A stretch of DNA of 64,000 nucleotides from Candidatus Kaiserbacteria bacterium (GTDB lineage: Bacteria > Patescibacteriota > Minisyncoccia > Phycocordibacterales > JABAAK01). The notes under the pieces were generated by a model. The model was not told where the DNA came from. It did not search any database and saw only the letters and a program-made list of their open reading frames with translations. Positions 32,611 to 52,890 of the stretch are shown here, in pieces; position 1 is the first letter of the stretch, and every line of letters starts with the position of its first letter. The DNA is taken from contig JAPPJI010000025.1 of NCBI GenBank assembly GCA_028820405.1, positions 609-64,608 on the forward strand, written 5' to 3'. The position numbers and the translations under genes were made by a program.

Positions 32611-34554
32611 TTACGATGACGGTGCAACAACACCGCCCCGTTCCGCCTCACGCAGGGGCTCTGACAGCACTTCCGTTGACAACGGCTGCACAGAACCTTG
32701 TACCGACTCATTAATATACGCATCTCTCGCCTGCCACGTTGTTCCCTGCGAAAGAATCAGTACATTACCAACGTCACGTTCGTCCGGATCAACAATGATC
32801 TGCACTTCAAATGATCGGGACGATCGTTGACCGACTGCGGTAAACGACGGGATACGGACAGCAATCTCATTGAAACCTTCATCATATGTCCAAAAGTCAC
32901 GAGCAATGCCTGCAATTTGACCAGCAAAGGTAACCCCTCGATTGAGCGGTATCTTCATAAAGAAATCCTCTATCGGATTTCCGCTATTTTGAATATCGTA
33001 CGCAAGCGTATACGATGTCCGCTTGCCAACCTGCGGTGGGGTCGGACCCTGGTTTGAAAATGACCCGTCCTGATACAATGTTCTCGCTACAACCTGCAGT
33101 GACCCTCGCAGTGAGACTTGTCGCTGCAGTGCGTGATCAATCGTTTCAACAGACCGCGTCTGTGCCCGCAACGCCTTCGCAGAAACCGACACAATGACAT
33201 TCCGCTCTGCCTGCAGTGCTTCTGACTGCTGCGAAAGGGTATTAAACGAGAACTCCACTTCCCCCTGACCGCCGGCACGGATCAGGGAATACGATCGAAT
33301 CTGCTGCTTATCCCACACAATTTGCCGAAGTGACTCACTGAGATGCCCGTTCGGTGACGTAACACTGCGCTCATCAAATCCGTTTCCGGAAAGCGAAACG
33401 GTGATGATGAGATCTTCAAGCCGTTCTTTGTCAGCATTCTTCCAGGAGAGTTGTCCGCTGACAACACCGCCGGGTGAGACTGCAATGGTTCTGTCACGGC
33501 TGCCGTTCAAGGCAAGGTCAATGTCAATAAACGATTTTTCAATTGCAAAGATGACACTCTCTTCTGCAACCTTCACCGACTCACTCAACTGACCGGTTGG
33601 CGAAACAAACACACCGACAACGAACGCCTGCTCGTCCCGCTCTTTTCCGCTGATAACTCCTCTCACCCACACATCACGCCCTTCGTTCGGCCGTAGTGAC
33701 GAGAGTCGCCACAACGTTCTCTCAGCATTAAACGGTGTCGTTGAGAACGACGACGGGGAAAACCCGGAAGGGTATGAGACCTGGACGTAGACCGTGTCAA
33801 TGATGTCCTTCATGTTCGATTGCACCTTTGTCTGAAACGTGACCTCTTTTCCGGACACAGGACTCGTGTGGGTAGGCTTGGTCAGGAGAATCGGTGTCGT
33901 GCGAAGTTTGATACTATGACTATCCTCTATCCGCATTGGCTGCGAGGTCCCCTGTGCCTGATAGCCGACCTCGTACACAATCTCTTTTTCCTGACCGTCA
34001 ATCCCATACAAGATCGGGGTAACATTTTTACTCACCACTTCACCGGTTTCCATCGAGCCGATGACAATCTCATCCCGATGCAGACGAACCGTGTCGTCAG
34101 CAGTTTTCTTGTAGGTGCCGTCCGGATAGATGATCGTCAGCGCCACATCTTCTATCGGAACAGGGTTACCGTTTGCAATGCGGATGGTAAGCGGTGTGGC
34201 CAGCCCGCTGTCAGCGACACTGGGACCCTGTGTCAGGATGGTAATTTTACTCGTGGAAACGGTCCGGTCAATGCCGGCAAACCGAACAAAATAGGCAACA
34301 CCGACGGTTATGAAAAAGAAGAAAAAGGTCGCGATGGCAAGGTAAATGAGGTAATTTGACCGGGGCTCCGCCGCCACACCCCCTTCCCAGTCGTCCGGCA
34401 GCGTTGTCTCCTCCTTTTTCAACGGTGCTTGATGGTCAGCTACCTTTTTTTTAACGTCGTAGTAGAGTGTTCGGGAAGCATCGCGAAGGCGCATGATATC
34501 AGTATACCCTACCACCTGCTCCGTGATATTGTGTACAATTCTTTGATATGCCAT
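32611..34554 (-). CDS. large membrane-anchored extracellular protein, hypothetical
   Basis: It has a cytoplasmic N-terminus, a single transmembrane segment (NYLIYLAIATFFFFFITVGVAYFV) and then about 550 aa of beta-rich repeats. The start is uncertain. Confidence 0.5.
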   Translation of the reverse strand: MAYQRIVHNITEQVVGYTDIMRLRDASRTLYYDVKKKVADHQAPLKKEETTLPDDWEGGVAAEPRSNYLIYLAIATFFFFFITVGVAYFVRFAGIDRTVSTSKITILTQGPSVADSGLATPLTIRIANGNPVPIEDVALTIIYPDGTYKKTADDTVRLHRDEIVIGSMETGEVVSKNVTPILYGIDGQEKEIVYEVGYQAQGTSQPMRIEDSHSIKLRTTPILLTKPTHTSPVSGKEVTFQTKVQSNMKDIIDTVYVQVSYPSGFSPSSFSTTPFNAERTLWRLSSLRPNEGRDVWVRGVISGKERDEQAFVVGVFVSPTGQLSESVKVAEESVIFAIEKSFIDIDLALNGSRDRTIAVSPGGVVSGQLSWKNADKERLEDLIITVSLSGNGFDERSVTSPNGHLSESLRQIVWDKQQIRSYSLIRAGGQGEVEFSFNTLSQQSEALQAERNVIVSVSAKALRAQTRSVETIDHALQRQVSLRGSLQVVARTLYQDGSFSNQGPTPPQVGKRTSYTLAYDIQNSGNPIEDFFMKIPLNRGVTFAGQIAGIARDFWTYDEGFNEIAVRIPSFTAVGQRSSRSFEVQIIVDPDERDVGNVLILSQGTTWQARDAYINESVQGSVQPLSTEVLSEPLREAERGGVVAPSS

Positions 34555-35117
34555 ATCCGGTCATCAATACCCGAGCGGTCATTCTCCATACACACCCAAC
34601 AGGCGAAGCAAATCGGGTACTCACCCTCCTCACCGAACAGCACGGCACGCTGCAGGTATTTGCCCGCAGTGTCCGAAAAGAAACGTCCCGTATGCGTTCT
34701 GCAGCGGTACCATATGCACTGGTCTCGTCATCAATTATTCTCAGTCGGCAGCATATCCTTAAAGATCTCCGAGTCATTGACCCGCTGCAAGATATTTGGA
34801 ATCGTGAACCGGTATACACCTCATACGTTGCCCTCCTCCGCTTCGTGCACACCACTGTTCCGGCAGTCGGTCACCATGATCCGGTGATATTTTCACTCGT
34901 CCTTGATGCGATCAGATCATACACAACAAGACCGCCATGTCAGACCGACGCCATCCTCCTCACTACGCAGGTGTTTATTTTGCATCGACTCGGATATGTA
35001 CACAATCCTGATCTTGACAGCATGTCACTCTCAACGGTCATCTCAGACACAACAACGTCTGCAAAACAACAACGTCTGTTCAAAAAACAAATCAAAGAAG
35101 GAATGACGTGGCAGTGA
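34548..35117 (+). CDS. recO: RecO-like DNA repair protein (short)
   Basis: An N-terminal OB-fold pattern (RAVILHTHPTGEANRVLTLLTEQHGTLQVFARSVR) and an LGY motif suggest RecO. No zinc finger. Confidence 0.5.
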   Translation: MPYPVINTRAVILHTHPTGEANRVLTLLTEQHGTLQVFARSVRKETSRMRSAAVPYALVSSSIILSRQHILKDLRVIDPLQDIWNREPVYTSYVALLRFVHTTVPAVGHHDPVIFSLVLDAIRSYTTRPPCQTDAILLTTQVFILHRLGYVHNPDLDSMSLSTVISDTTTSAKQQRLFKKQIKEGMTWQ

Positions 35118-35119
35118 CG

Positions 35120-38100
35120 CTAGACGGAAAGCCGACCCGGTTGTTTGACGAGTACCACATGCACCGGTGTACCGTCAACGGTACACTCATGTGCACCGTC
35201 ACGAGGACTCTTGTCATAGATTACTTCTTCAACCCGAAGTTCTTTCTTGATATGGTCTTCAAACTGTTTGAGCTGCCGCTGTTTTTCCTCTGTCGGAAGG
35301 TAGACATACATACGTGCAAGCACCTCGGTGAGTGAACACTGCATCTTCTTTCGTACCCCCTGTATGTTACGTATGTATGACCGAACAAACCCTTCCGTAC
35401 GAAGGCTGTCGTCAAGTACCGTATCAAGAACGACTACTTCGTCTGCTGCAGGGGTAACAATGACCTCTTTGACGTTGACCTCTTCCGCAATAATATGCTT
35501 CCCCTCGTCGGACACCGCCTCCTTAATCGTTACCGATCGAAGCGGCTGCCGAACGGGGATACCGGCACGGGACCGCACCTCATGTGCAAGAGAGACAATG
35601 TGTCGAATGCTGTCAACCGCTTCCACCACATCCTGACGGACCGGCATTGACCGTGACCATGAGCAAAGATGAACACTCTCGGGAAACGGGATAACGGGCG
35701 AATGATATTTTTTAAGGCGGCTGAAGAGGTGTTCCGCAAAAAACGGGGCGATCGGGGCTATACATTTTGCCGTCTCCGTCAGTACAAAACGAAGTGTCTC
35801 CCGAGCCCGCGCACCGTCCGCACTGTCACTTCGGATACGGTCACGGGATCGGCGAATGTACCAGGTCGAAAGATCGTCAACAAACGCAGCAATTGGTCCG
35901 GCTGCAAGATCCATTCGGTACCCTTCAAACCCGTCCGTCATGCTTTTTTGCACCATTGCAAGACGTGATCGGATGTAGGTATCAAGCAGTGCGGTATTTC
36001 TGCCGCGCCGATGCGGCAGGTGTGCGTACGACTCATAGAAAGAAAAACAGTTGCCGAGACGGGTATAGATTTTTTTGTACACATCGTGCACCTGCTCCTC
36101 CTGAAAATCAATGTCCTGACCCCGGACAACGGGCGAGGCGAGGAGGTAGTGGCGGAGTGAGTCGGCACCGTACTGATCAATCAGCTGCAGCGGATCGGTG
36201 TAGTTTTTCAGTCTTTTGCTCATTTTTCGGCCGTCCGAAGCACGAATCAGACCGGTGGTCACCACATTTCGATACGGTGCCCGGTCAAAAAGACCGACGG
36301 CAATTGCCATGAGACTGTAGAACCAGCCGCGGGTTTGATCAAGTCCTTCGCAGATAAAGTCAGCAGGGAAGCCGTTTCCCCGCTCCGGATCAAACGAACT
36401 GCCTCGTGCAAACGGATAGTGGTGTGACCCGTAGGGCATCGCACCGGACTCAAACCAACAGTCGAACACCTCCTTGTTGTGGTATGCCGGGTTGCCGTTA
36501 TCGTCAAAGAGCACAATATCATCAATGTACGGACGGTGAAGATCAATGTCACCGTGTTCATCCCAGTGCACTCCCTTGTACGGCACTGAGGTAATACTGC
36601 AGTACGGTGTCGGCAGGATACTCACCGAGGCAATACGACTGGTCATTTCAGACACCAACGGTTCCATTGCCTTCGCCAAATTTATCACCATCCGGTGCGT
36701 CACCACAACGATCGTTTCCCCTTCGTACTGTGCGTCAACGGTTTCAAGAAATGTCTGGATTCGTCGATAGATGTCCCGATATGATTCACCGTCCGCCACC
36801 GGTGTATCAATATGCTTATACAACGCTCCCCTCTTTATCTCCCACAGCAGTTCACGGATCGGTCTGTTATTCAACGACGGAACCTGCAGTTCAGTTAAAA
36901 GCGGATCTTCAATCACTTTTGCACCTGTTTCTTTCGCAATACGTTCAGCGGTTTGTTTGGCGCGCGGAAGCGGTGAACAAAAAATAACGGTCGGCGATCG
37001 GTCTCGTATCTTTTTCCCTGCCGCTGTTGCCTGCCGCTTCCCCCGCTCAGTGAGACCGTCGCTGTCGCCCGGCTGGCAGTGGAAGAGTTTTCTTCGGTTA
37101 TGTTTTGATTCACCATGCCGAACAAAGAGATAGCTGTTCTTCGGACGCATACGGTCAAGCATTTCCTCAATTGACCCAACGACAAATGTTTCTCCGGTTT
37201 TCTTCACCGTCCACACCGGCAGCGGTGCGCCCCAAAATCGTGTTCGTGACACCGACCACTCTTTGGCACTCGCAAGCCAGTTACCGAACCGACCGTCACG
37301 GAGGTGACCGGGTACCCAACGAACGGTTCTGTTCTCCGCGACCATCTGATCCCGCAGCCGCTCCGCATGGACGAACCAAGAATCCGTCGCGTAGTTGAGG
37401 AGGGGGGTATCACACCGCCAACAGATCGGGTAGCTGTGCTCAACAGTTCCCCGATGCAGGAGGACTCCTCGCCGGTCAAGTTCATTGCAAATCTTCTCAT
37501 CAACGTCTTTCGGGTTACCGCTCTCCTTCGGCCGCAGACCGGCGAATTCTTTAAGGTCATCAGTAAAGACACCGTCAATGGTAACGTGATGACGAATCGG
37601 CAGCCGCTCTCTCTTCGCAAGTTCCATGTCCTCTTCTCCGTACGCGGGTGCAAGGTGCACGACAGCGGTACCGGTCGAATCTTCTACATACGGTGCATGG
37701 TATATCCGATGCACCCGCTGCTGCTCATCGTCAGAAACGTGCAAGGAGGGCAACGGCGGTCGGTACCGGTGACCGATGAACTCACTCCCCTTCTTTTTTG
37801 CAACAATCGTCGCGTCACCGAGAATACCGAGTGCTCTCTCGTGCAACACATATCGCTTCCCCTCTTTCTCCGCGACAACATAATCCAGGTCTTTGTGCAC
37901 TCCGAGTGCAACGTTGCCAAACAGCGTCCACGGAGTCGTCGTCCAGGCAACAAATGAGAGTCCCTCGTCTTCCGTGCTGGGAAACAGAACATAGACTTCC
38001 GTGTCGGTGAGGGTGGTATAGTTTTCTGCAACTTCAGCGTTTGAAATAGTTGTTGAGCATCGGGGACAGAGGTGGAGGATTTTTCTTCCGGCACTTGCAA

Positions 38101-38659
38101 GTCCCTTGCGGTGCAGTCCTCTGAAGGCTGCCCACACTGACTCTGTATACGCAACATCCATGGTCCGGTACCCCCGACTCATATCAACCCAACGACCGAT
38201 CCTCTGAATGAACTGTTCCCACTCTTTTGCATGGCGGAACACCGTTTCCCGGGCTTTCTCATTGAACTCACGGATCCCGTGTTCCTCAACATCCCGTTTT
38301 GTCTTAAGTCCCACCGCCTGTTCAACCTCAACCTCAACCGGCAGTCCGTGACAGTCCCAGCCCCACCGACGGCGAACAGTGTACCCCCGCATTGTCTTAT
38401 ACCGAAGCAGTGCATCCTTCACGACGCTTTGCAAGATACTGCCGTAGTGCGGGAGACCGGTTGCAAACGGAGGACCGTCGTAGAAGATGAACGGTTTCTT
38501 TCTCCGAAACGTATTCCGAACCTTGTTCCAAAACCCCCGCTCACGTCGTTCACTTTTTTCAAAAATATCATTCTCCTGCCAGAACGTGAGAACCTTTTTT
38601 TCCTGTTCCGCAACCGATGAACGACGTGCATCATCAGCAGGCGGCTGTTTGACGCCCAT
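35120..38659 (-). CDS. ileS: isoleucyl-tRNA synthetase (type 2) with an inserted histidine-phosphatase (PGAM-like) domain
   Basis: IleRS is identified by PPFATGLPHYGS (the HIGH motif), the CP1 editing motif TTPWTLFGN, GRKMSKRLKNY (KMSKS) and an anticodon-binding domain. Between FWGAPLPVW and DLHRPYID there is an extra roughly 190 aa carrying LFVRHGESKHN, LTERGKRQA and VVVTHRM histidine-phosphatase motifs. The start is set at MGVKQ... Confidence 0.85.
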   Translation of the reverse strand: MGVKQPPADDARRSSVAEQEKKVLTFWQENDIFEKSERRERGFWNKVRNTFRRKKPFIFYDGPPFATGLPHYGSILQSVVKDALLRYKTMRGYTVRRRWGWDCHGLPVEVEVEQAVGLKTKRDVEEHGIREFNEKARETVFRHAKEWEQFIQRIGRWVDMSRGYRTMDVAYTESVWAAFRGLHRKGLASAGRKILHLCPRCSTTISNAEVAENYTTLTDTEVYVLFPSTEDEGLSFVAWTTTPWTLFGNVALGVHKDLDYVVAEKEGKRYVLHERALGILGDATIVAKKKGSEFIGHRYRPPLPSLHVSDDEQQRVHRIYHAPYVEDSTGTAVVHLAPAYGEEDMELAKRERLPIRHHVTIDGVFTDDLKEFAGLRPKESGNPKDVDEKICNELDRRGVLLHRGTVEHSYPICWRCDTPLLNYATDSWFVHAERLRDQMVAENRTVRWVPGHLRDGRFGNWLASAKEWSVSRTRFWGAPLPVWTVKKTGETFVVGSIEEMLDRMRPKNSYLFVRHGESKHNRRKLFHCQPGDSDGLTERGKRQATAAGKKIRDRSPTVIFCSPLPRAKQTAERIAKETGAKVIEDPLLTELQVPSLNNRPIRELLWEIKRGALYKHIDTPVADGESYRDIYRRIQTFLETVDAQYEGETIVVVTHRMVINLAKAMEPLVSEMTSRIASVSILPTPYCSITSVPYKGVHWDEHGDIDLHRPYIDDIVLFDDNGNPAYHNKEVFDCWFESGAMPYGSHHYPFARGSSFDPERGNGFPADFICEGLDQTRGWFYSLMAIAVGLFDRAPYRNVVTTGLIRASDGRKMSKRLKNYTDPLQLIDQYGADSLRHYLLASPVVRGQDIDFQEEQVHDVYKKIYTRLGNCFSFYESYAHLPHRRGRNTALLDTYIRSRLAMVQKSMTDGFEGYRMDLAAGPIAAFVDDLSTWYIRRSRDRIRSDSADGARARETLRFVLTETAKCIAPIAPFFAEHLFSRLKKYHSPVIPFPESVHLCSWSRSMPVRQDVVEAVDSIRHIVSLAHEVRSRAGIPVRQPLRSVTIKEAVSDEGKHIIAEEVNVKEVIVTPAADEVVVLDTVLDDSLRTEGFVRSYIRNIQGVRKKMQCSLTEVLARMYVYLPTEEKQRQLKQFEDHIKKELRVEEVIYDKSPRDGAHECTVDGTPVHVVLVKQPGRLSV

Positions 38660-38757
38660 ATCTACGGGAGTATACCACAGTGTCTCTTGCAAAAAGAAAA
38701 GGTGCCCGCACATATTGTTGCGGACACCTTCAGAGATCTTCCATGATCACCCTTCCT

Positions 38758-38956: not shown

Positions 38957-39379
38957 CTAGGAAATAGAGATACCCATAGAACGGGCGGTCCCTTCAAGGA
39001 TCTTTTCAGCGGCGGCGATATCCCGAGCATTCAGGTCCTGCATTTTCTGCTCAGCGATCTCCGTAAGTGCCTTCCGGTTGATCGTTCCGGCTCGTTTTAC
39101 CAGATTCTTTCCCGACCCTTTATCAATACCTGCCGCCTTCCGAAGCAGGAATGATGCCGGAGGTGTTTTGAGAATGAAATCAAAGGTCTTATCCTCATAG
39201 ACGGTAAGGATGACGGGGACAATATCACCCTGCCGGTCTTGTGACGCGGTGTTAAATTGTGAGCAGAAATCTCCGATATTGATACCGACCGGACCGAGTG
39301 CGGTGCCGATTGGCGGTGCAGGTGTTGCCTGACCTGCCGGAATCTGCATTTTGACAACGTGACCTATTTTCTTAGCCAT
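38957..39379 (-). CDS. rplK: 50S ribosomal protein L11
   Basis: QIPAGQATPAPPIGTALGPVGINI is the L11 signature. Confidence 0.9.
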   Translation of the reverse strand: MAKKIGHVVKMQIPAGQATPAPPIGTALGPVGINIGDFCSQFNTASQDRQGDIVPVILTVYEDKTFDFILKTPPASFLLRKAAGIDKGSGKNLVKRAGTINRKALTEIAEQKMQDLNARDIAAAEKILEGTARSMGISIS

Positions 39380-39392
39380 ACCTTATTTATAC

Positions 39393-39932
39393 CTATAAAC
39401 CGCGGATTTGGAAAATGTCGAGTTTGACCGGGGTCTCCCGACCGAACATGGAAACGTACACCATAGCCTGACCTTTGTCCGGATGCACCTCACCAATCCT
39501 GCCATCAAGATCTGCAAACGGTCCGTCAGTGATTCGAACCATATCACCAACCTTGAAATCCGTTTCATGGTGCACCACGTCACCGCTCATTTGCTGTTTA
39601 ATGATGTCAACCTCTTCCTGCGACAGTGCCTCAGCATACTCTTTGGTGCCGAGAAAACCGGAAACATGCTCAACGTTATTCACCGCATACCAGGTTTGGT
39701 CATCAATGACCATGTGAACAATAATATAGCCGGGATAGATGCGTTCCTCCTTCTCAGTCCGCTTCCCGCCTTTCACCCGCACCTGTTTCTCCGTCGGGAC
39801 AATGACTTCAAAGATTCGATCACTCAGATCAAGTGAATTAACTGCCTGCTCAATCCCCGACTTCACCGACTGTTCAAATCCTGAGTGTGCTTTGACAACG
39901 TACCACTGTGCCTCTTCCTTTTTTTCCTCCAT
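39393..39932 (-). CDS. nusG: transcription termination/antitermination factor NusG
   Basis: An NGN domain (WYVVKAHSGFE) and a KOW motif (KVGDMVRITDGPFADLDGRIGEV). Confidence 0.9.
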   Translation of the reverse strand: MEEKKEEAQWYVVKAHSGFEQSVKSGIEQAVNSLDLSDRIFEVIVPTEKQVRVKGGKRTEKEERIYPGYIIVHMVIDDQTWYAVNNVEHVSGFLGTKEYAEALSQEEVDIIKQQMSGDVVHHETDFKVGDMVRITDGPFADLDGRIGEVHPDKGQAMVYVSMFGRETPVKLDIFQIRGL

Positions 39933-49296: not shown

Positions 49297-52200
49297 CTAC
49301 GCCGCCGGTCGATTCACAAAACGAACCGTGTTTGGATTTGTGTCATCATATCGACCTTCCGGACTCAAACTCTTGCCAAGTACCACCTTTTCAACACCAC
49401 CTTCACGCATAACCGGAACGTTCATACGATTCGACACCATGGACTGCACAAACAGATCAAAGAACGCACTGACATCAACACCGTATGAACTGTATTCAGG
49501 TTCGATGAGAACGGCGGGGTCTTTTCCTTCAGCGTCTCGAACCACCTTCACTGCAGACCGTGACACGCTTGCCTCAAGGATAGGGAGGATATCCGCATTT
49601 TTAATTCCTTCGCGCTTTACCCTGTCCCATCGTTCCTCTGAAAATGCAGTCAGGTCAACCGCATACATGACCTTGCAGTTTGGGTCACCGACAAACCCCA
49701 TCAAACTTTTCGAATTCATGTTCTTCACATCATATTGGAGACAGGAAAGACCGCCCGTCGGATACTTACCAGTACGCCACAGAACACGGGGATCATCGGT
49801 AAAGAGGATGCCGAGTCGGTGCTTTCTTCCGATCTCTGTTCCTTCTTTAAGGACTGATTCAATATTCTCAAGGACATGACCGAATGATCCCGTCTGCGCA
49901 GCATGATCCCCACTTCCCTTCTTCTTTCCGAAATAGTTTTTAAGGCGGTCAATCACTGTCTTGATCGTTTCCTCACTCAGACCGTTCGATATCCTGTTGT
50001 TCGCAATTTTTTCACCGGTTAGTGTGAGCAATTTCAGAATATTCTCGATAACACGAACCTCCTCTCGTTTCTCATAGAACTGCTGACGATTCTTCACTTC
50101 GGTGTCAAAACCGTATCTCTCAAAGAGGTCAGAAGAAAGTGCCGAAGCGTACTGCTGCTCTACCTGCTGAACCGATGCATCAATTGCCTGACGCATACTG
50201 TCGGTGAGTACGGTCATTGAAACCCCTCGCTCGAGGACGTTATACCGTACCTGTATTTCTTTTCTGAGGTCTGCCGGAAGAAACTGTTTAACACGATTGA
50301 CAATATTCTTCATCTTGCTTCCCGGTTTCGTCTCCTCAGAGAGTATCGAAATCCACTGCCTGAGACTTGGAATTGCATGGTATTTGGTAATAGTGTCGAT
50401 TGCATTCGCATCGTTTTGAATACGTTCAAGTGTTTCGGTGATGATGACATCTTTCCCGTCAGGATCTTCCTCTGTTTTTTGCAGTACTGTTTCGATGACG
50501 GTTTGAATATGTTTTTCAGCGACACCCTCGGTATCCGGCACACCCGCATCCTCGTTATATATATGTTTGTCCCGCAACACCGCATCTTGCAGCAAGTGGT
50601 ATATTTTCTCTGACTTCTTCGCTGCCCCGGCAGAAAGTACAACGTCACCGACATCAATAACCTGGTCTGTTTTCCAAAGATTGAGCTGTTCTTCTGAAAG
50701 GTGCCCTATCTGATCTTCAATAATCTCCTGATTCCTTTCGGCGCTGTACCGCCATGACTTCCAGTTCTCTTGACTATCAGTGTGTGCAACAATGTCGGTG
50801 ATATATTTCCGCATGTTTGGAAACTTACCGAGGTAGGTAAAAACTGGCTCAAGATTTCCCCAGGAATCAAAAAGCGTCATTGCCCGATCCGTATCAATAT
50901 CGGGATGCGAGAGTACCCGTTGCACAAACTGACGGGTTGACTCATCAACAAGACGTGCCAGATCCTCAAGATTTTGTGACTCTGACGAGATAAGGTGCTC
51001 TGCAGTAAACGAAGCATCTACCGCCTCTAAGATAGACTGTCGTTCATTCGCATTGCCGTATATCTGTACTGCATTCTCTTTGAGTGATTGTGTTGAGGTG
51101 TCCAAAAAAGCGATGCTGTTAAAAATGTCCATGAGGTGCTCAACGTCCGATTCTGTTTCCAGGGTAACCTGACGCAGTTTCTCGCCCAACACCCGAACGA
51201 CACTTCGATCAGTGTGAAGCACGTCAACGAATGAACGAAAGACTGCATCAGCGGTTTCGGCACGCAATCCGTTTGCAAAAAGGTTTTGAAAAATGTCCAA
51301 CACACGATACTCGCCAGAAATATGGGCAAAGGCAACCATTTGCATGAAGGTTCGCTTTGGTATGTCACGGTATTGATTTCCCCACCGCTTGTACAGAGGA
51401 AATGCAGTAAAATCAAAATCTTTCAGGAGGGCAAATGACTCTGTTGATTTATTTAATACGGCAATTTGATCATCGCTATTGTTGTACAAAAAGTCCATAA
51501 ACTGCACGTCACGCCAATCAATATCTTTCTCGGGCTGATTCTCAAACCAAGCACGAACAAACACCCTGCCCGAATCAGACAACCACTCATTTTCTTCGTT
51601 GAGCAGCTTTCGTATGATTGCATGCCGAACCACAGGATCAAGACGTTTAAACGAAAGCATCTCCGCCAATGCTTCACTTGCATCCATTATCGGTGACTGC
51701 AAGAGAACAAGGAGCGCGGACTCTTGGGCAGGACCAAGACCCCACAAAGAATCGGGGTCGTCTGACTGACCTGATTCATGCACCACCTTCGCGAGATCTT
51801 CAATCACATTACTGATACCGCCAAGCTTTTCATTTGCTTTGCTCAACACCGTCACTGCTTGAAGTCGATCAAGCGACGATGCGTTGGCATCAGTCGCAAT
51901 CCTGCCCTGCTCTTCAAGGGCGTCATCTAGTATCGACTGTGTTTCCCTATTAGCGTTACGAAGATCAATAATGCTCTCCCACTGCCAGTGTGCGACATCA
52001 TCTCTGTATCGTTGCATAAAATGTTCGGAGATGTCCATTCCATTGAAAAATGTGTCAGCAAACTGCTTTACCGACTGATCCTTCCATCGGCTGCTTCGTC
52101 GATAGAAGTAGTCAAGAGCGTCATGCAAGACTGATTGGTATGCACCCATACCCTCTCTCGGAGCAAACGTGGCAACGGCATCTTGAAGTATTGCAGCACC

Positions 52201-52890
52201 GCCATGGTGAACGACATACCCCATCATCTTTTTACGAAGATCGTTTTTAAATGTCTCTCGACTGTTAATAAAGTCCTCAATATCTTCCGTAATACCGAAC
52301 TGTTCCCGCACTATCGCGATACTTTCTTTTGCACTATCAAGCCGATCCTGCGCTGAACCAACCCAGATACGGTCAAAAATGCTCATGATGTGGGTTTTGA
52401 CAAGATCTTCTCCGACATGGGCAAGGTCAGATTCTGACAGGTTAAGAACGTCTTTGCCGTACGAGGCAATATCCGCAGCGGTGTCACCACCGGCATCCCC
52501 AGACATTTCCGGACTTTCAATCGACGGAAGAAAATGTGATTGGAAGAGTGAAACCATGCGTGATGATCCTTCCCCCGCACCGTCACTCTGATGCAGTGTG
52601 GCAGAGAGGAAAAGAAACGTTTCTGCCGCTTCACCCTGCAATGCCTTGATAATCTGTTCCCGATCAACACCACCTCTTCCGGCACCTCTTTCTATCTCCT
52701 CTATCTTCCGTTGCATCTGATCATCCGGTCTCGGCTGATTCCACGGAAACTGACGAATGTCGGAAAAGAGTTCTCGATATGCCTCCTGAACCTCTTCAGA
52801 TGACAATGCATCGTACGCTTCTTCCCTGCGCTCAACCCGCACTCTCTTTGTCTCAAGCCCCCGCATTTTCATGCATGCAGTATATCTCAC
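49297..52890 (-). CDS. very large (about 1190 aa) cytoplasmic protein with no recognisable domain
   Basis: A single uninterrupted ORF with no transmembrane segment, signal peptide or P-loop, and a charged, helical-looking composition. The start is either M1 or M7. Confidence 0.6.
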   Translation of the reverse strand: MRYTACMKMRGLETKRVRVERREEAYDALSSEEVQEAYRELFSDIRQFPWNQPRPDDQMQRKIEEIERGAGRGGVDREQIIKALQGEAAETFLFLSATLHQSDGAGEGSSRMVSLFQSHFLPSIESPEMSGDAGGDTAADIASYGKDVLNLSESDLAHVGEDLVKTHIMSIFDRIWVGSAQDRLDSAKESIAIVREQFGITEDIEDFINSRETFKNDLRKKMMGYVVHHGGAAILQDAVATFAPREGMGAYQSVLHDALDYFYRRSSRWKDQSVKQFADTFFNGMDISEHFMQRYRDDVAHWQWESIIDLRNANRETQSILDDALEEQGRIATDANASSLDRLQAVTVLSKANEKLGGISNVIEDLAKVVHESGQSDDPDSLWGLGPAQESALLVLLQSPIMDASEALAEMLSFKRLDPVVRHAIIRKLLNEENEWLSDSGRVFVRAWFENQPEKDIDWRDVQFMDFLYNNSDDQIAVLNKSTESFALLKDFDFTAFPLYKRWGNQYRDIPKRTFMQMVAFAHISGEYRVLDIFQNLFANGLRAETADAVFRSFVDVLHTDRSVVRVLGEKLRQVTLETESDVEHLMDIFNSIAFLDTSTQSLKENAVQIYGNANERQSILEAVDASFTAEHLISSESQNLEDLARLVDESTRQFVQRVLSHPDIDTDRAMTLFDSWGNLEPVFTYLGKFPNMRKYITDIVAHTDSQENWKSWRYSAERNQEIIEDQIGHLSEEQLNLWKTDQVIDVGDVVLSAGAAKKSEKIYHLLQDAVLRDKHIYNEDAGVPDTEGVAEKHIQTVIETVLQKTEEDPDGKDVIITETLERIQNDANAIDTITKYHAIPSLRQWISILSEETKPGSKMKNIVNRVKQFLPADLRKEIQVRYNVLERGVSMTVLTDSMRQAIDASVQQVEQQYASALSSDLFERYGFDTEVKNRQQFYEKREEVRVIENILKLLTLTGEKIANNRISNGLSEETIKTVIDRLKNYFGKKKGSGDHAAQTGSFGHVLENIESVLKEGTEIGRKHRLGILFTDDPRVLWRTGKYPTGGLSCLQYDVKNMNSKSLMGFVGDPNCKVMYAVDLTAFSEERWDRVKREGIKNADILPILEASVSRSAVKVVRDAEGKDPAVLIEPEYSSYGVDVSAFFDLFVQSMVSNRMNVPVMREGGVEKVVLGKSLSPEGRYDDTNPNTVRFVNRPAA

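Follow-up and report, generated by a model that had tools for sequence, protein, structure and literature searches.

Occurrence of a histidine phosphatase domain within the CP3 subdomain of isoleucyl-tRNA synthetase in Patescibacteria

A phosphatase domain embedded in isoleucyl-tRNA synthetase

The ileS gene in a 64-kb stretch of DNA from a Candidatus Kaiserbacteria bacterium (contig JAPPJI010000025.1, positions 609 to 64,608; 64,000 nucleotides, hereafter the window) encodes a type-2 isoleucyl-tRNA synthetase (IleRS) into which a branch-1 histidine phosphatase (HP) domain, complete and resembling phosphomonoesterases such as PhoE, PspA and CobC, is inserted internally. Phosphatase activity is predicted from the sequence. 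The domain sits inside CP3, a peripheral connective-polypeptide subdomain, and outside the catalytic core proper. The protein probably combines an active HP with a functional type-2 IleRS and represents the fused form of a recurrent partnership between the two. Both component families are familiar ones, and other catalytic domains have been seen fused to synthetases before; the window gene exemplifies an association that is widespread in Patescibacteria.

The gene is a single uninterrupted open reading frame (ORF) at 35120..38713 on the minus strand, encoding 1197 residues from the upstream ATG. The deposited NCBI protein (P0001), named 'class I tRNA ligase family protein' and derived from a Candidatus Kaiserbacteria metagenome-assembled genome, is 100% identical over 1179 residues and starts at the second ATG, 38659, from which residues are numbered here; the source organism is placed in the Parcubacteria group of Patescibacteria. 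The ORF shows no frameshift across the insert, the IleRS sequence being in frame on both sides, and the GC content is ~0.50 in the insert as against 0.52-0.59 in the flanks, without a sharp break. An artefact, in which an assembly chimera or a frameshift would have joined two genes, is rejected and carries next to no weight, considering the intact frame, the identical NCBI protein and hundreds of independent assemblies with the same architecture.

The host was recognised as IleRS with a score of 758 bits to the ileS equivalog model TIGR00392 (cutoff 621.4), whereas it remains under the cutoffs of the valS and leuS models. Pfam matches follow the order tRNA-synt_1, split around His_Phos_1, then Anticodon_1 and DUF5915. 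The full-length AlphaFold2 (AF2) model has a predicted local distance difference test score (pLDDT) of 90.6 and a predicted template modelling score (pTM) of 0.85. When the model was searched with Foldseek, target-normalised template modelling (TM) scores were 0.82 to 8c8v, 0.89 to 8wnd_B and 0.90 to 1ile, all of type 2, and lower (0.66-0.73) to type-1 enzymes. The type-2 architecture read from the sequence in an earlier note is thus borne out, and the motifs which that note quoted (PHYGS, TTPWT, KMSKR, DLHRPYID and RHG) were all found at verified coordinates (Table 1). The window protein shares domain order, motifs, editing domain and DUF5915 with other type-2 enzymes (P. megaterium IleRS2, 8c8u/8c8v; T. 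thermophilus, 1ile; E ~1e-184), which, however, have a connection of 8-10 residues where the window protein has a 203-residue HP in CP3.

In the editing domain, H335 and D344 are invariant, and matches to the isolated editing-domain structures 1wk8 and 1udz were obtained. All parts of the synthetase are intact, so that charging of tRNA-Ile and editing of valine are expected to be preserved. The protein scores 565 and 617 to the mupirocin-resistance models NF000257 and NF000258, well under their cutoff of 1900, and 279 to the GNAT-containing IleRS model NF040702 (cutoff 1999).

The structure alignment to IleRS halts at query residue 502 and restarts at 706, while the counterpart structures advance just 8-11 residues across the gap (490 to 498 in human 9w01_B; 473 to 484 in P. 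megaterium IleRS2, 8c8u), which confirms the insertion point. In the AF2 model, strands at 482-485 and 491-493 and a helix at 497-503 are followed by the HP fold and then by the DLHRPYID helix. In Candida albicans IleRS, CP3 comprises residues 473-534, and the topology of this subdomain differs among IleRSs (PMC7191050). Query residue 502 aligns with residue 497 of the C. albicans chain in 6ldk. Because both the alignment and the AF2 model keep CP3 on either side of the HP, the domain is placed within CP3, and the earlier statement that it was inserted in the catalytic core has to be corrected on these grounds. The extent given there, 36570..37140, proved right in substance and slightly narrow, the insert occupying 36545..37153; its 'residues 526-715' fit the numbering from the upstream ATG.

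Identity of the inserted domain

The inserted segment matches PF00300 (His_Phos_1) over residues 511-662 with an E-value of 8.1e-34 and 117.4 bits, against a gathering cutoff of 21.7, and its assignment to the branch-1 histidine phosphatases in the earlier note therefore stands. An AF2 model of the insert alone has a pLDDT of 91.5. With this insert Foldseek detected PspA (4ij5/4ij6), GpgP (4pz9/6s2q) and PhoE (1h2e) at a probability of 1.00 and TM scores of 0.72-0.76 over their full length. On searching a profile of the insert against the PDB, the top matches were PspA (116 bits), PhoE (99 bits) and CobC (90 bits), and the catalytic residues of the insert align with those of PspA and PhoE. The full-length fold and the RHG/R/E/H set are shared with PspA (4ij5), PhoE/YhfR (1h2e/1ebb), GpgP Rv2419c (4pz9) and CobC (6nru, 6e4b). 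These proteins are, however, 20-25% identical to the insert and are free-standing, whereas the insert is embedded in another enzyme.

At the level of curated families, the insert falls short of each equivalog with which it was compared: CobC (TIGR03162, 83.7 against 162.9), archaeal dPGM (NF038349, 80.2 against 225), a further dPGM model (TIGR01258, 34.6 against 81.7) and PspA (NF045917, 75.7 against 350), the last although PspA is its best solved relative. The SixA model (TIGR00249) did not match the insert at E<=1e-5; a free-standing HP from locus L081, described below, reached 37.8 against its cutoff of 74.5. The insert is thus a member of the superfamily that belongs to no defined family.

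Other identities of the segment were considered and set aside. An intein was rejected as the segment starts with RMRPKN and ends with HGDI, followed by DLHR, with no splicing residues at the junctions. A known IleRS-specific insertion or zinc module was rejected as the segment matches no IleRS structure and CP3 is kept on both sides. A link to anti-phage defence was also dropped, the HP having no PADLOC match. On the points by which the earlier note would have been overturned, the profile match is significant, the segment is not a known IleRS-specific insertion, and neither a frameshift nor a chimera is present. The surface of the insert is near neutral, and HP inserts have a median isoelectric point (pI) of 6.2-6.7.

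Conservation of the insert

Conservation was assessed in the 120 best homologues (41-77% identity), and in 112 homologues for the HIGH, KMSKS and editing positions. PF00300 is present in all 120, with Kaiserbacteria, Pacebacteria, Taylorbacteria and Parcubacteria among the named sources. This survey of related genomes, which the earlier note had proposed, recovers the same architecture from 77% down to 41% identity. R514, H515, R566, E590 and H655 are invariant in 120/120 homologues, and N508, G540, S562, E625 and R633 are the further invariant positions of the insert. The view that the catalytic residues are intact and the insertion not decayed is supported by this invariance and by the clean in-frame insertion. 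Because the catalytic residues of both the HP and the synthetase are invariant, both activities appear to be under purifying selection.

A non-catalytic role, in which the HP serves as a structural replacement within CP3, a dimerisation surface or a phosphate-binding anchor for tRNA, would find some support in the structural variability of CP3 among IleRSs, and many small HPs are dimers. Nevertheless the general-acid glutamate and both catalytic histidines stay invariant while the domain drifts to ~27% identity, a free-standing form exists, and the inserts are not basic, so that such a role is regarded as very improbable.

Distribution among synthetases and lineages

In a scan of species-representative genomes, the insert was found in Paceibacteria, Nomurabacteria, Yanofskybacteria, Spechtbacterales, Minisyncoccia and Peregrinibacteria/Peribacteria, while Saccharimonadales, Bacteroidota and others show just a connection of 50-80 residues between the flanking motifs. 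A Peribacteria IleRS (P0121, locus L032) has no insert in CP3 and carries an HP in a loop of the anticodon-binding domain instead. On analysis of its homologues from Gracilibacteria, Peregrinibacteria and Peribacteria, four IleRS sites for HP were recognised: CP3a, before DLHRPYID, which is the window type; CP3b, after DLHRPYID; RF2, between DCWFESG and KMSKS; and ABD, within the anticodon-binding domain. Up to three HP copies occur in one IleRS (P0142, P0172). HP domains are ~29-31% identical between sites and 32-43% within a site, and since identity within a site exceeds that between sites, each site holds an old lineage of its own.

Among 387 proteins examined, 337 hosts are IleRS and two are valyl-tRNA synthetases (ValRS), so that IleRS accounts for 337 of the 339 synthetase-embedded cases. 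The ValRS P0287 (1538 residues; PRK05729, 849 bits against a cutoff of 704) has two HP domains, and the truncated P0241 (1161 residues) has at least four. The phenomenon therefore reaches, rarely, the closest paralogue of IleRS. A fifth IleRS site, 'CP2', was dropped from consideration because P0287 and P0241 are ValRS.

In 279 HP domains embedded in synthetases, the five catalytic residues (Arg, His, Arg, Glu and His) hardly vary. Both the Arg and the His of RHG are kept in all non-truncated embedded copies, and the only substitutions are of Glu to Asp or Asn in 4 of the 12 RF2 copies. A few CP3a inserts (L009, L052, L026) have RHP or RHS in place of RHG, with the catalytic Arg-His pair retained; in L026, Ser replaces the conserved Asn521.

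A search with the insert profile against 1.84 billion cluster representatives gave 679 matches at E<=1e-30. The best 150 of these 679 are mostly IleRS or fragments thereof, and include two ValRS, ~17 free HPs (187-215 residues) and ~14 free tandem di-HPs.

The loops used by HP also accommodate other domains in Gracilibacteria, Peregrinibacteria and Peribacteria, namely GNAT, HAD_2, an AAA_33/zeta-like P-loop kinase, Ser_hydrolase/abhydrolase, DUF559 (Vsr-like endonuclease) and an IS200-like Y1 transposase (Y1_Tnp). A HAD phosphatase lies in a loop of P0182, and GNAT and HP occur together in one IleRS in P0106 and P0142. Examples of such multi-domain IleRS are P0142, P0182, P0185, P0208, P0221, P0128 and P0150, homologues of L032:4606-8229, which reach up to 1859 residues. 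In P0185 a P-loop kinase is embedded at ~775-945 (RF2), for which the best solved relative is Pnkp1 of the bacterial Pnkp-Rnl-Hen1 RNA repair system (4xrp) at a weak E-value of 1.5e-5.

Free-standing phosphatases adjacent to ileS

Of the embedded classes, the CP3a-type inserts come closest to the free single HPs, at 40-50% identity. In all five loci examined, from Portnoybacteria-like genomes, the gene immediately upstream of an ileS without insert encodes the free HP. These loci are L081, L085/L086, an ENA contig on which the gene downstream of HP runs off the contig end, L089, and L090 (Portnoybacteria), the last reached from the IleRS side. The spacing between the free HP gene and ileS ranges from a 1-nt gap to a 19-nt overlap. 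The unfused order is argS-HP-ileS-recO, with recO co-directional downstream of ileS, followed by a large unknown protein; HP remains beside ileS even where argS has moved away (L089). The window echoes this order, with a recO_N ORF (34548..35117) and an unannotated 647-residue ORF near ileS.

In L081, L085 and L090 the protein after ileS/recO is 524-615 residues long and gives faint or no Pfam matches (CLIPPER, DUF7619). The recurrence of comparable large proteins after ileS/recO points to a conserved gene order that includes an uncharacterised protein, probably located at the surface.

Tandem di-HP proteins of 404-450 residues (P0302, P0322, P0339, P0341, P0343, P0362, P0365-P0367, P0369, P0374 and P0385; loci L083, L087 and L088) were rejected as members of the system. 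They score as highly against the profile as the inserts themselves, but occur away from ileS in unrelated contexts that do not resemble the candidate phyla radiation (CPR), for instance with ApbA, fmt and MIP genes as neighbours in GCA_008501685.1.

A separate array is present at L043:3786-11405, on a 338-kb contig labelled 'Saccharibacteria', in which overlapping co-directional genes encode a GNAT, a GDSL esterase, a MutT-like NUDIX protein, an HP and YunG/UDG, directly upstream of a 1272-residue ileS product carrying unassigned extra sequence. It was not used as strong evidence, its 186-residue HP being distant (65 bits to the insert profile) and the operon looking like mixed housekeeping.

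Comparison with known fusions

No description of an HP-IleRS fusion was found in the paper library searched, in agreement with the earlier note, which knew of none; the combination of domains has, however, already been recorded by automated annotation and is widespread in Patescibacteria. The JGI pipeline names one relative 'isoleucyl-tRNA synthetase/phosphohistidine phosphatase SixA/...'. NCBIfam curates the GNAT-containing IleRS (NF040702, ileS_w_GNAT), and no model was seen there for the HP-containing form. With the GNAT form, a curated example already exists of an IleRS that contains an entire catalytic domain, although the window protein has no GNAT.

Fusions of HPs to other enzymes offer further parallels. 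In the RNase H/acid phosphatase Rv2228c/RnhC (NF005567), a CobC-like HP is fused to a nucleic-acid enzyme, and the insert gives 75 bits to the phosphatase half; this is, however, an end-to-end fusion with an RNase H partner, and the score of the insert is far under the cutoff of 326. Mycobacterial MutT1 couples an HP domain to a nucleotide-handling (Nudix) enzyme and dephosphorylates proteins, which may be compared with the Nudix-HP pair in L043, but the partner is a different one, the fusion is terminal, and ileS in the window has no Nudix domain. 6-phosphofructo-2-kinase/fructose-2,6-bisphosphatase is the classic case of a branch-1 HP fused to a catalytic domain that acts on the same metabolite, and it was among the PDB matches of the insert profile. 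There the fusion is in tandem and the shared substrate is known, whereas the HP in the window is an internal insertion.

Functional interpretation

Histidine phosphatases act on terminal phosphomonoesters through a phospho-histidine intermediate. In the predicted mechanism, H515 would attack the terminal phosphoryl group held by R514, R566 and H655, E590 would protonate the leaving group, and the phospho-histidine intermediate would then be hydrolysed. The earlier note had suggested aminoacyl-adenylate or Ap4A as substrates, but by the established chemistry of the family Ile-AMP and Ap4A are poor candidates because they have no terminal phosphomonoester; nucleotide monophosphates or a regulatory role are still to be reckoned with. 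Given that the HP is used at several loop positions and in a free-standing form as well, a fixed channel leading out of the aminoacylation pocket is improbable. The domain would most likely be an autonomous enzyme, kept beside IleRS and made 1:1 with it, whose phospho-substrate would be diffusible or bound transiently and not channelled from that pocket. The same HP lineage occurs in two settings, as an insertion at four different IleRS loops and as a gene immediately upstream of an ileS that has no insert.

The four sites, the several copies and the adjacent unfused gene suggest a functional link between HP and IleRS. The main rival to this interpretation is that the HP is parked in permissive loops and performs a job unrelated to IleRS, for example as a general metabolic phosphomonoesterase; large class Ia synthetases tolerate domain insertions, and an essential constitutive gene would be a cheap carrier in a streamlined genome. 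The GNAT, HAD_2, AAA_33 kinase, Ser_hydrolase, DUF559 and Y1_Tnp domains found in the same IleRS loops in Gracilibacteria and Peregrinibacteria fit such a view, as do the near-neutral surface of the insert, its closest solved relatives, which are small-molecule phosphatases, the CPR ileS genes without HP nearby and the rare ValRS hosts. Random parking should, however, scatter a domain over many host genes, and the focus of HP on IleRS, the host in nearly all embedded cases, therefore speaks against it. HP also dominates the inserted domains, PF00300 being present in most of the 120 L032 homologues as well as in every homologue of the window protein; it entered four separate IleRS sites, and its unfused orthologue still abuts ileS in 5/5 loci, even where argS has left. 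On balance, parking is considered unlikely, though it has to be taken seriously.

Several observations nevertheless weigh against an active HP in functional partnership with IleRS. No HP lies within 3 kb of three insert-less ileS loci (Kuenenbacteria, Paceibacterota and Minisyncoccia), nor within ~4-6 kb of several ileS loci of Saccharimonadales. The insert evolves faster than the synthetase, with a median identity of 27% against 47% for the rest of the protein over the 120 homologues. The loops may simply be permissive because unrelated domains share them. Finally, the insert lies below all curated equivalog cutoffs (CobC, dPGM and PspA), so that the databases give no hint about its substrate.

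Among candidate substrates, the largest share of a divided expectation goes to an unrelated metabolite, with the HP merely riding along with IleRS, although even this is doubtful when taken singly. A nucleotide-type phosphomonoester of the charging cycle, such as a 2'/3'-phosphorylated tRNA end or AMP, follows closely as a tentative candidate, and a phosphoprotein, either IleRS itself or a partner, ranks somewhat lower. Other possibilities hold a smaller share still, and a phosphorylated antimetabolite directed at IleRS is the least probable of the substrates listed.

One proposal under the nucleotide heading is that of tRNA end-healing tethered to the synthetase, in which the HP would clear a 2'/3'-phosphate from the acceptor terminus or from a loop cut by a nuclease and so enable recharging. 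The phosphate would stem from ribotoxins, RNases or tRNA-phosphorylating toxins, and the kinase, HAD and GNAT modules of relatives would join in the task. In its favour, some Gracilibacteria-type IleRSs carry the P-loop kinase related to Pnkp1 (4xrp, E=1.5e-5) and P0182 a HAD phosphatase in the same loops, and nucleotide-like phosphomonoesters lie within the usual range of the HP subgroup to which the insert belongs (CobC-like matches). The insertion sites also span the catalytic and the anticodon-binding domains, both of which contact tRNA in class Ia complexes. However, we know of no branch-1 histidine phosphatase that acts on RNA ends. The inserts are not basic, and a near-neutral charge lends nucleic-acid binding no support; the kinase resembles Pnkp1 weakly, neither an RNA ligase nor any other repair gene was seen around ileS in the HP-ileS loci L081, L085/L086, L089 and L090, and there is no evident reason for mainly tRNA-Ile to need repair. 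Healing of tRNA ends is accordingly rated improbable.

A built-in phosphoprotein phosphatase, which would erase inhibitory phosphate on His, Ser or Thr of IleRS or a partner, either as a regulatory switch or as a shield against kinase toxins hitting synthetases, has about the same low standing. Kinase toxins are known to phosphorylate synthetases, HipA acting on GltX and HipT on TrpS. Action in trans would tolerate many insertion sites and is compatible with the neutral surface, and some IleRS scaffolds bear kinase and acetyltransferase modules alongside HP. Proteins of HP fold in bacteria do act on phosphoproteins, and precedents are available in the C-terminal HP domain of MutT1, which acts on sensor kinases (PMC12407098), and in SixA, which acts on Ndk (PMC12934123). 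Against this, no phosphosite is known, the co-occurring kinase is of AAA_33 type (small-molecule/polynucleotide kinases) and not of a protein-kinase family, and the window insert lacks a match at the level of SixA.

Self-protection was also considered, whereby an IleRS-binding compound, either a phosphorylated inhibitor or an adenylate mimic, would be modified by the HP in concert with modules seen in relatives (GNAT, esterase, kinase and Nudix). IleRS is a frequent target of natural products, for example SB-203207, and the domains in or beside ileS resemble enzymes that modify small molecules (GNAT, hydrolase, kinase and phosphatases), as in the GNAT-GDSL esterase-NUDIX-HP array upstream of ileS in L043. 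Phosphatases are, however, an unusual means of resistance, no IleRS inhibitor bearing a phosphomonoester is known to us, and the L043 HP is a distant relative (65 bits) in what looks like a mixed housekeeping operon. Self-protection thus appears quite remote, though less so than the non-catalytic role discussed above.

A broader and speculative proposal, to which a rather low probability is given, is that of a CPR-only 'eraser' tethered to the synthetase, in which HP along with kinase, HAD, GNAT and hydrolase modules would clear either the tRNA end or the synthetase itself of phosphate marks. If true, it would constitute an unrecognised repair or defence layer of translation that clears damage or toxin-installed blocks on a charging enzyme.

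Aminoacyl-tRNA synthetases are among the best-studied enzymes, and the accessory domains they carry usually serve in tRNA binding, editing or eukaryotic signalling. Across a large bacterial radiation a catalytically intact phosphatase has been recruited to IleRS repeatedly, either into one of four loops, with as many as three copies per protein, or as an abutting gene. This pattern would imply an unrecognised phosphate-removing step tied to the synthesis of Ile-tRNA, the maintenance of tRNA-Ile or the regulation of IleRS; alternatively, it may reflect an unusual form of genome streamlining in which an essential enzyme acts as a chassis for other enzymes. For annotators, it provides a defined architecture for proteins now labelled generically as 'class I tRNA ligase family protein'.

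Annotated features and neighbouring genes

Coordinates of the features of the ileS product are collected in Table 1.

Table 1. Features of the ileS product in the window, with residues numbered from the ATG at 38659
Feature	Position	Strand	Evidence
ileS coding sequence, type-2 IleRS with phosphatase insert, 1179 residues	35120..38659	-	ORF, TIGR00392, Pfam, AF2, Foldseek
HIGH-type signature PHYGS, residues 70-74, aminoacylation site	38438..38452	-	translation; P70, H71 and G73 invariant (112 homologues)
CP1 editing motif WTTTPWT, residues 239-245	37925..37945	-	translation; W239, T240-T242, W244 and T245 invariant
CP3 N-terminal part, residues 481-502, beta-hairpin and helix, PVWTVKKTGETFVVGSIEEMLD	37154..37219	-	AF2 secondary structure, alignment to 6ldk
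Inserted histidine phosphatase (HP), residues 503-705, 203 residues	36545..37153	-	PF00300, structure alignment, AF2, Foldseek
RHG motif: R514, H515 (predicted phospho-accepting nucleophile), G516	37112..37120	-	translation; R and H in 120/120 homologues
R566 (SPLPR motif), second phosphate-binding Arg	36962..36964	-	aligns with the SPLxR Arg of PspA and PhoE
E590, predicted general acid (proton donor)	36890..36892	-	invariant in homologues
H655 (VVVTH motif), second catalytic His	36695..36697	-	translation; invariant
DLHRPYID, residues 706-713, IleRS CP3 resumes	36521..36544	-	alignment to human and P. megaterium IleRS
KMSKR, residues 812-816, KMSKS-type ATP-binding loop	36212..36226	-	K812 and K815 invariant
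Anticodon-binding domain PF08264, residues 893-1042	35534..35983	-	Pfam
DUF5915 (PF19302), residues 1057-1171, C-terminal, typical for type-2 IleRS	35147..35491	-	Pfam

The 64-kb window contains no second HP and no second ileS. Two in-frame ATGs are available for ileS at 38659..38713 (minus strand), and the start at 38713 adds 18 residues (MCGHLFFLQETLWYTPVD). Downstream, an ORF of 189 residues with RecO_N only (34548..35117, plus strand) is convergent with ileS and ends 2 nt from its stop, and the 647-residue ORF near ileS and recO_N (32611..34554, minus strand) has no Pfam match. Upstream of ileS, rplK and nusG are located at 38957..39932 on the minus strand. A further ORF of 1197 residues at 49297..52890 (minus strand) gave no Pfam match at E<=1e-5.

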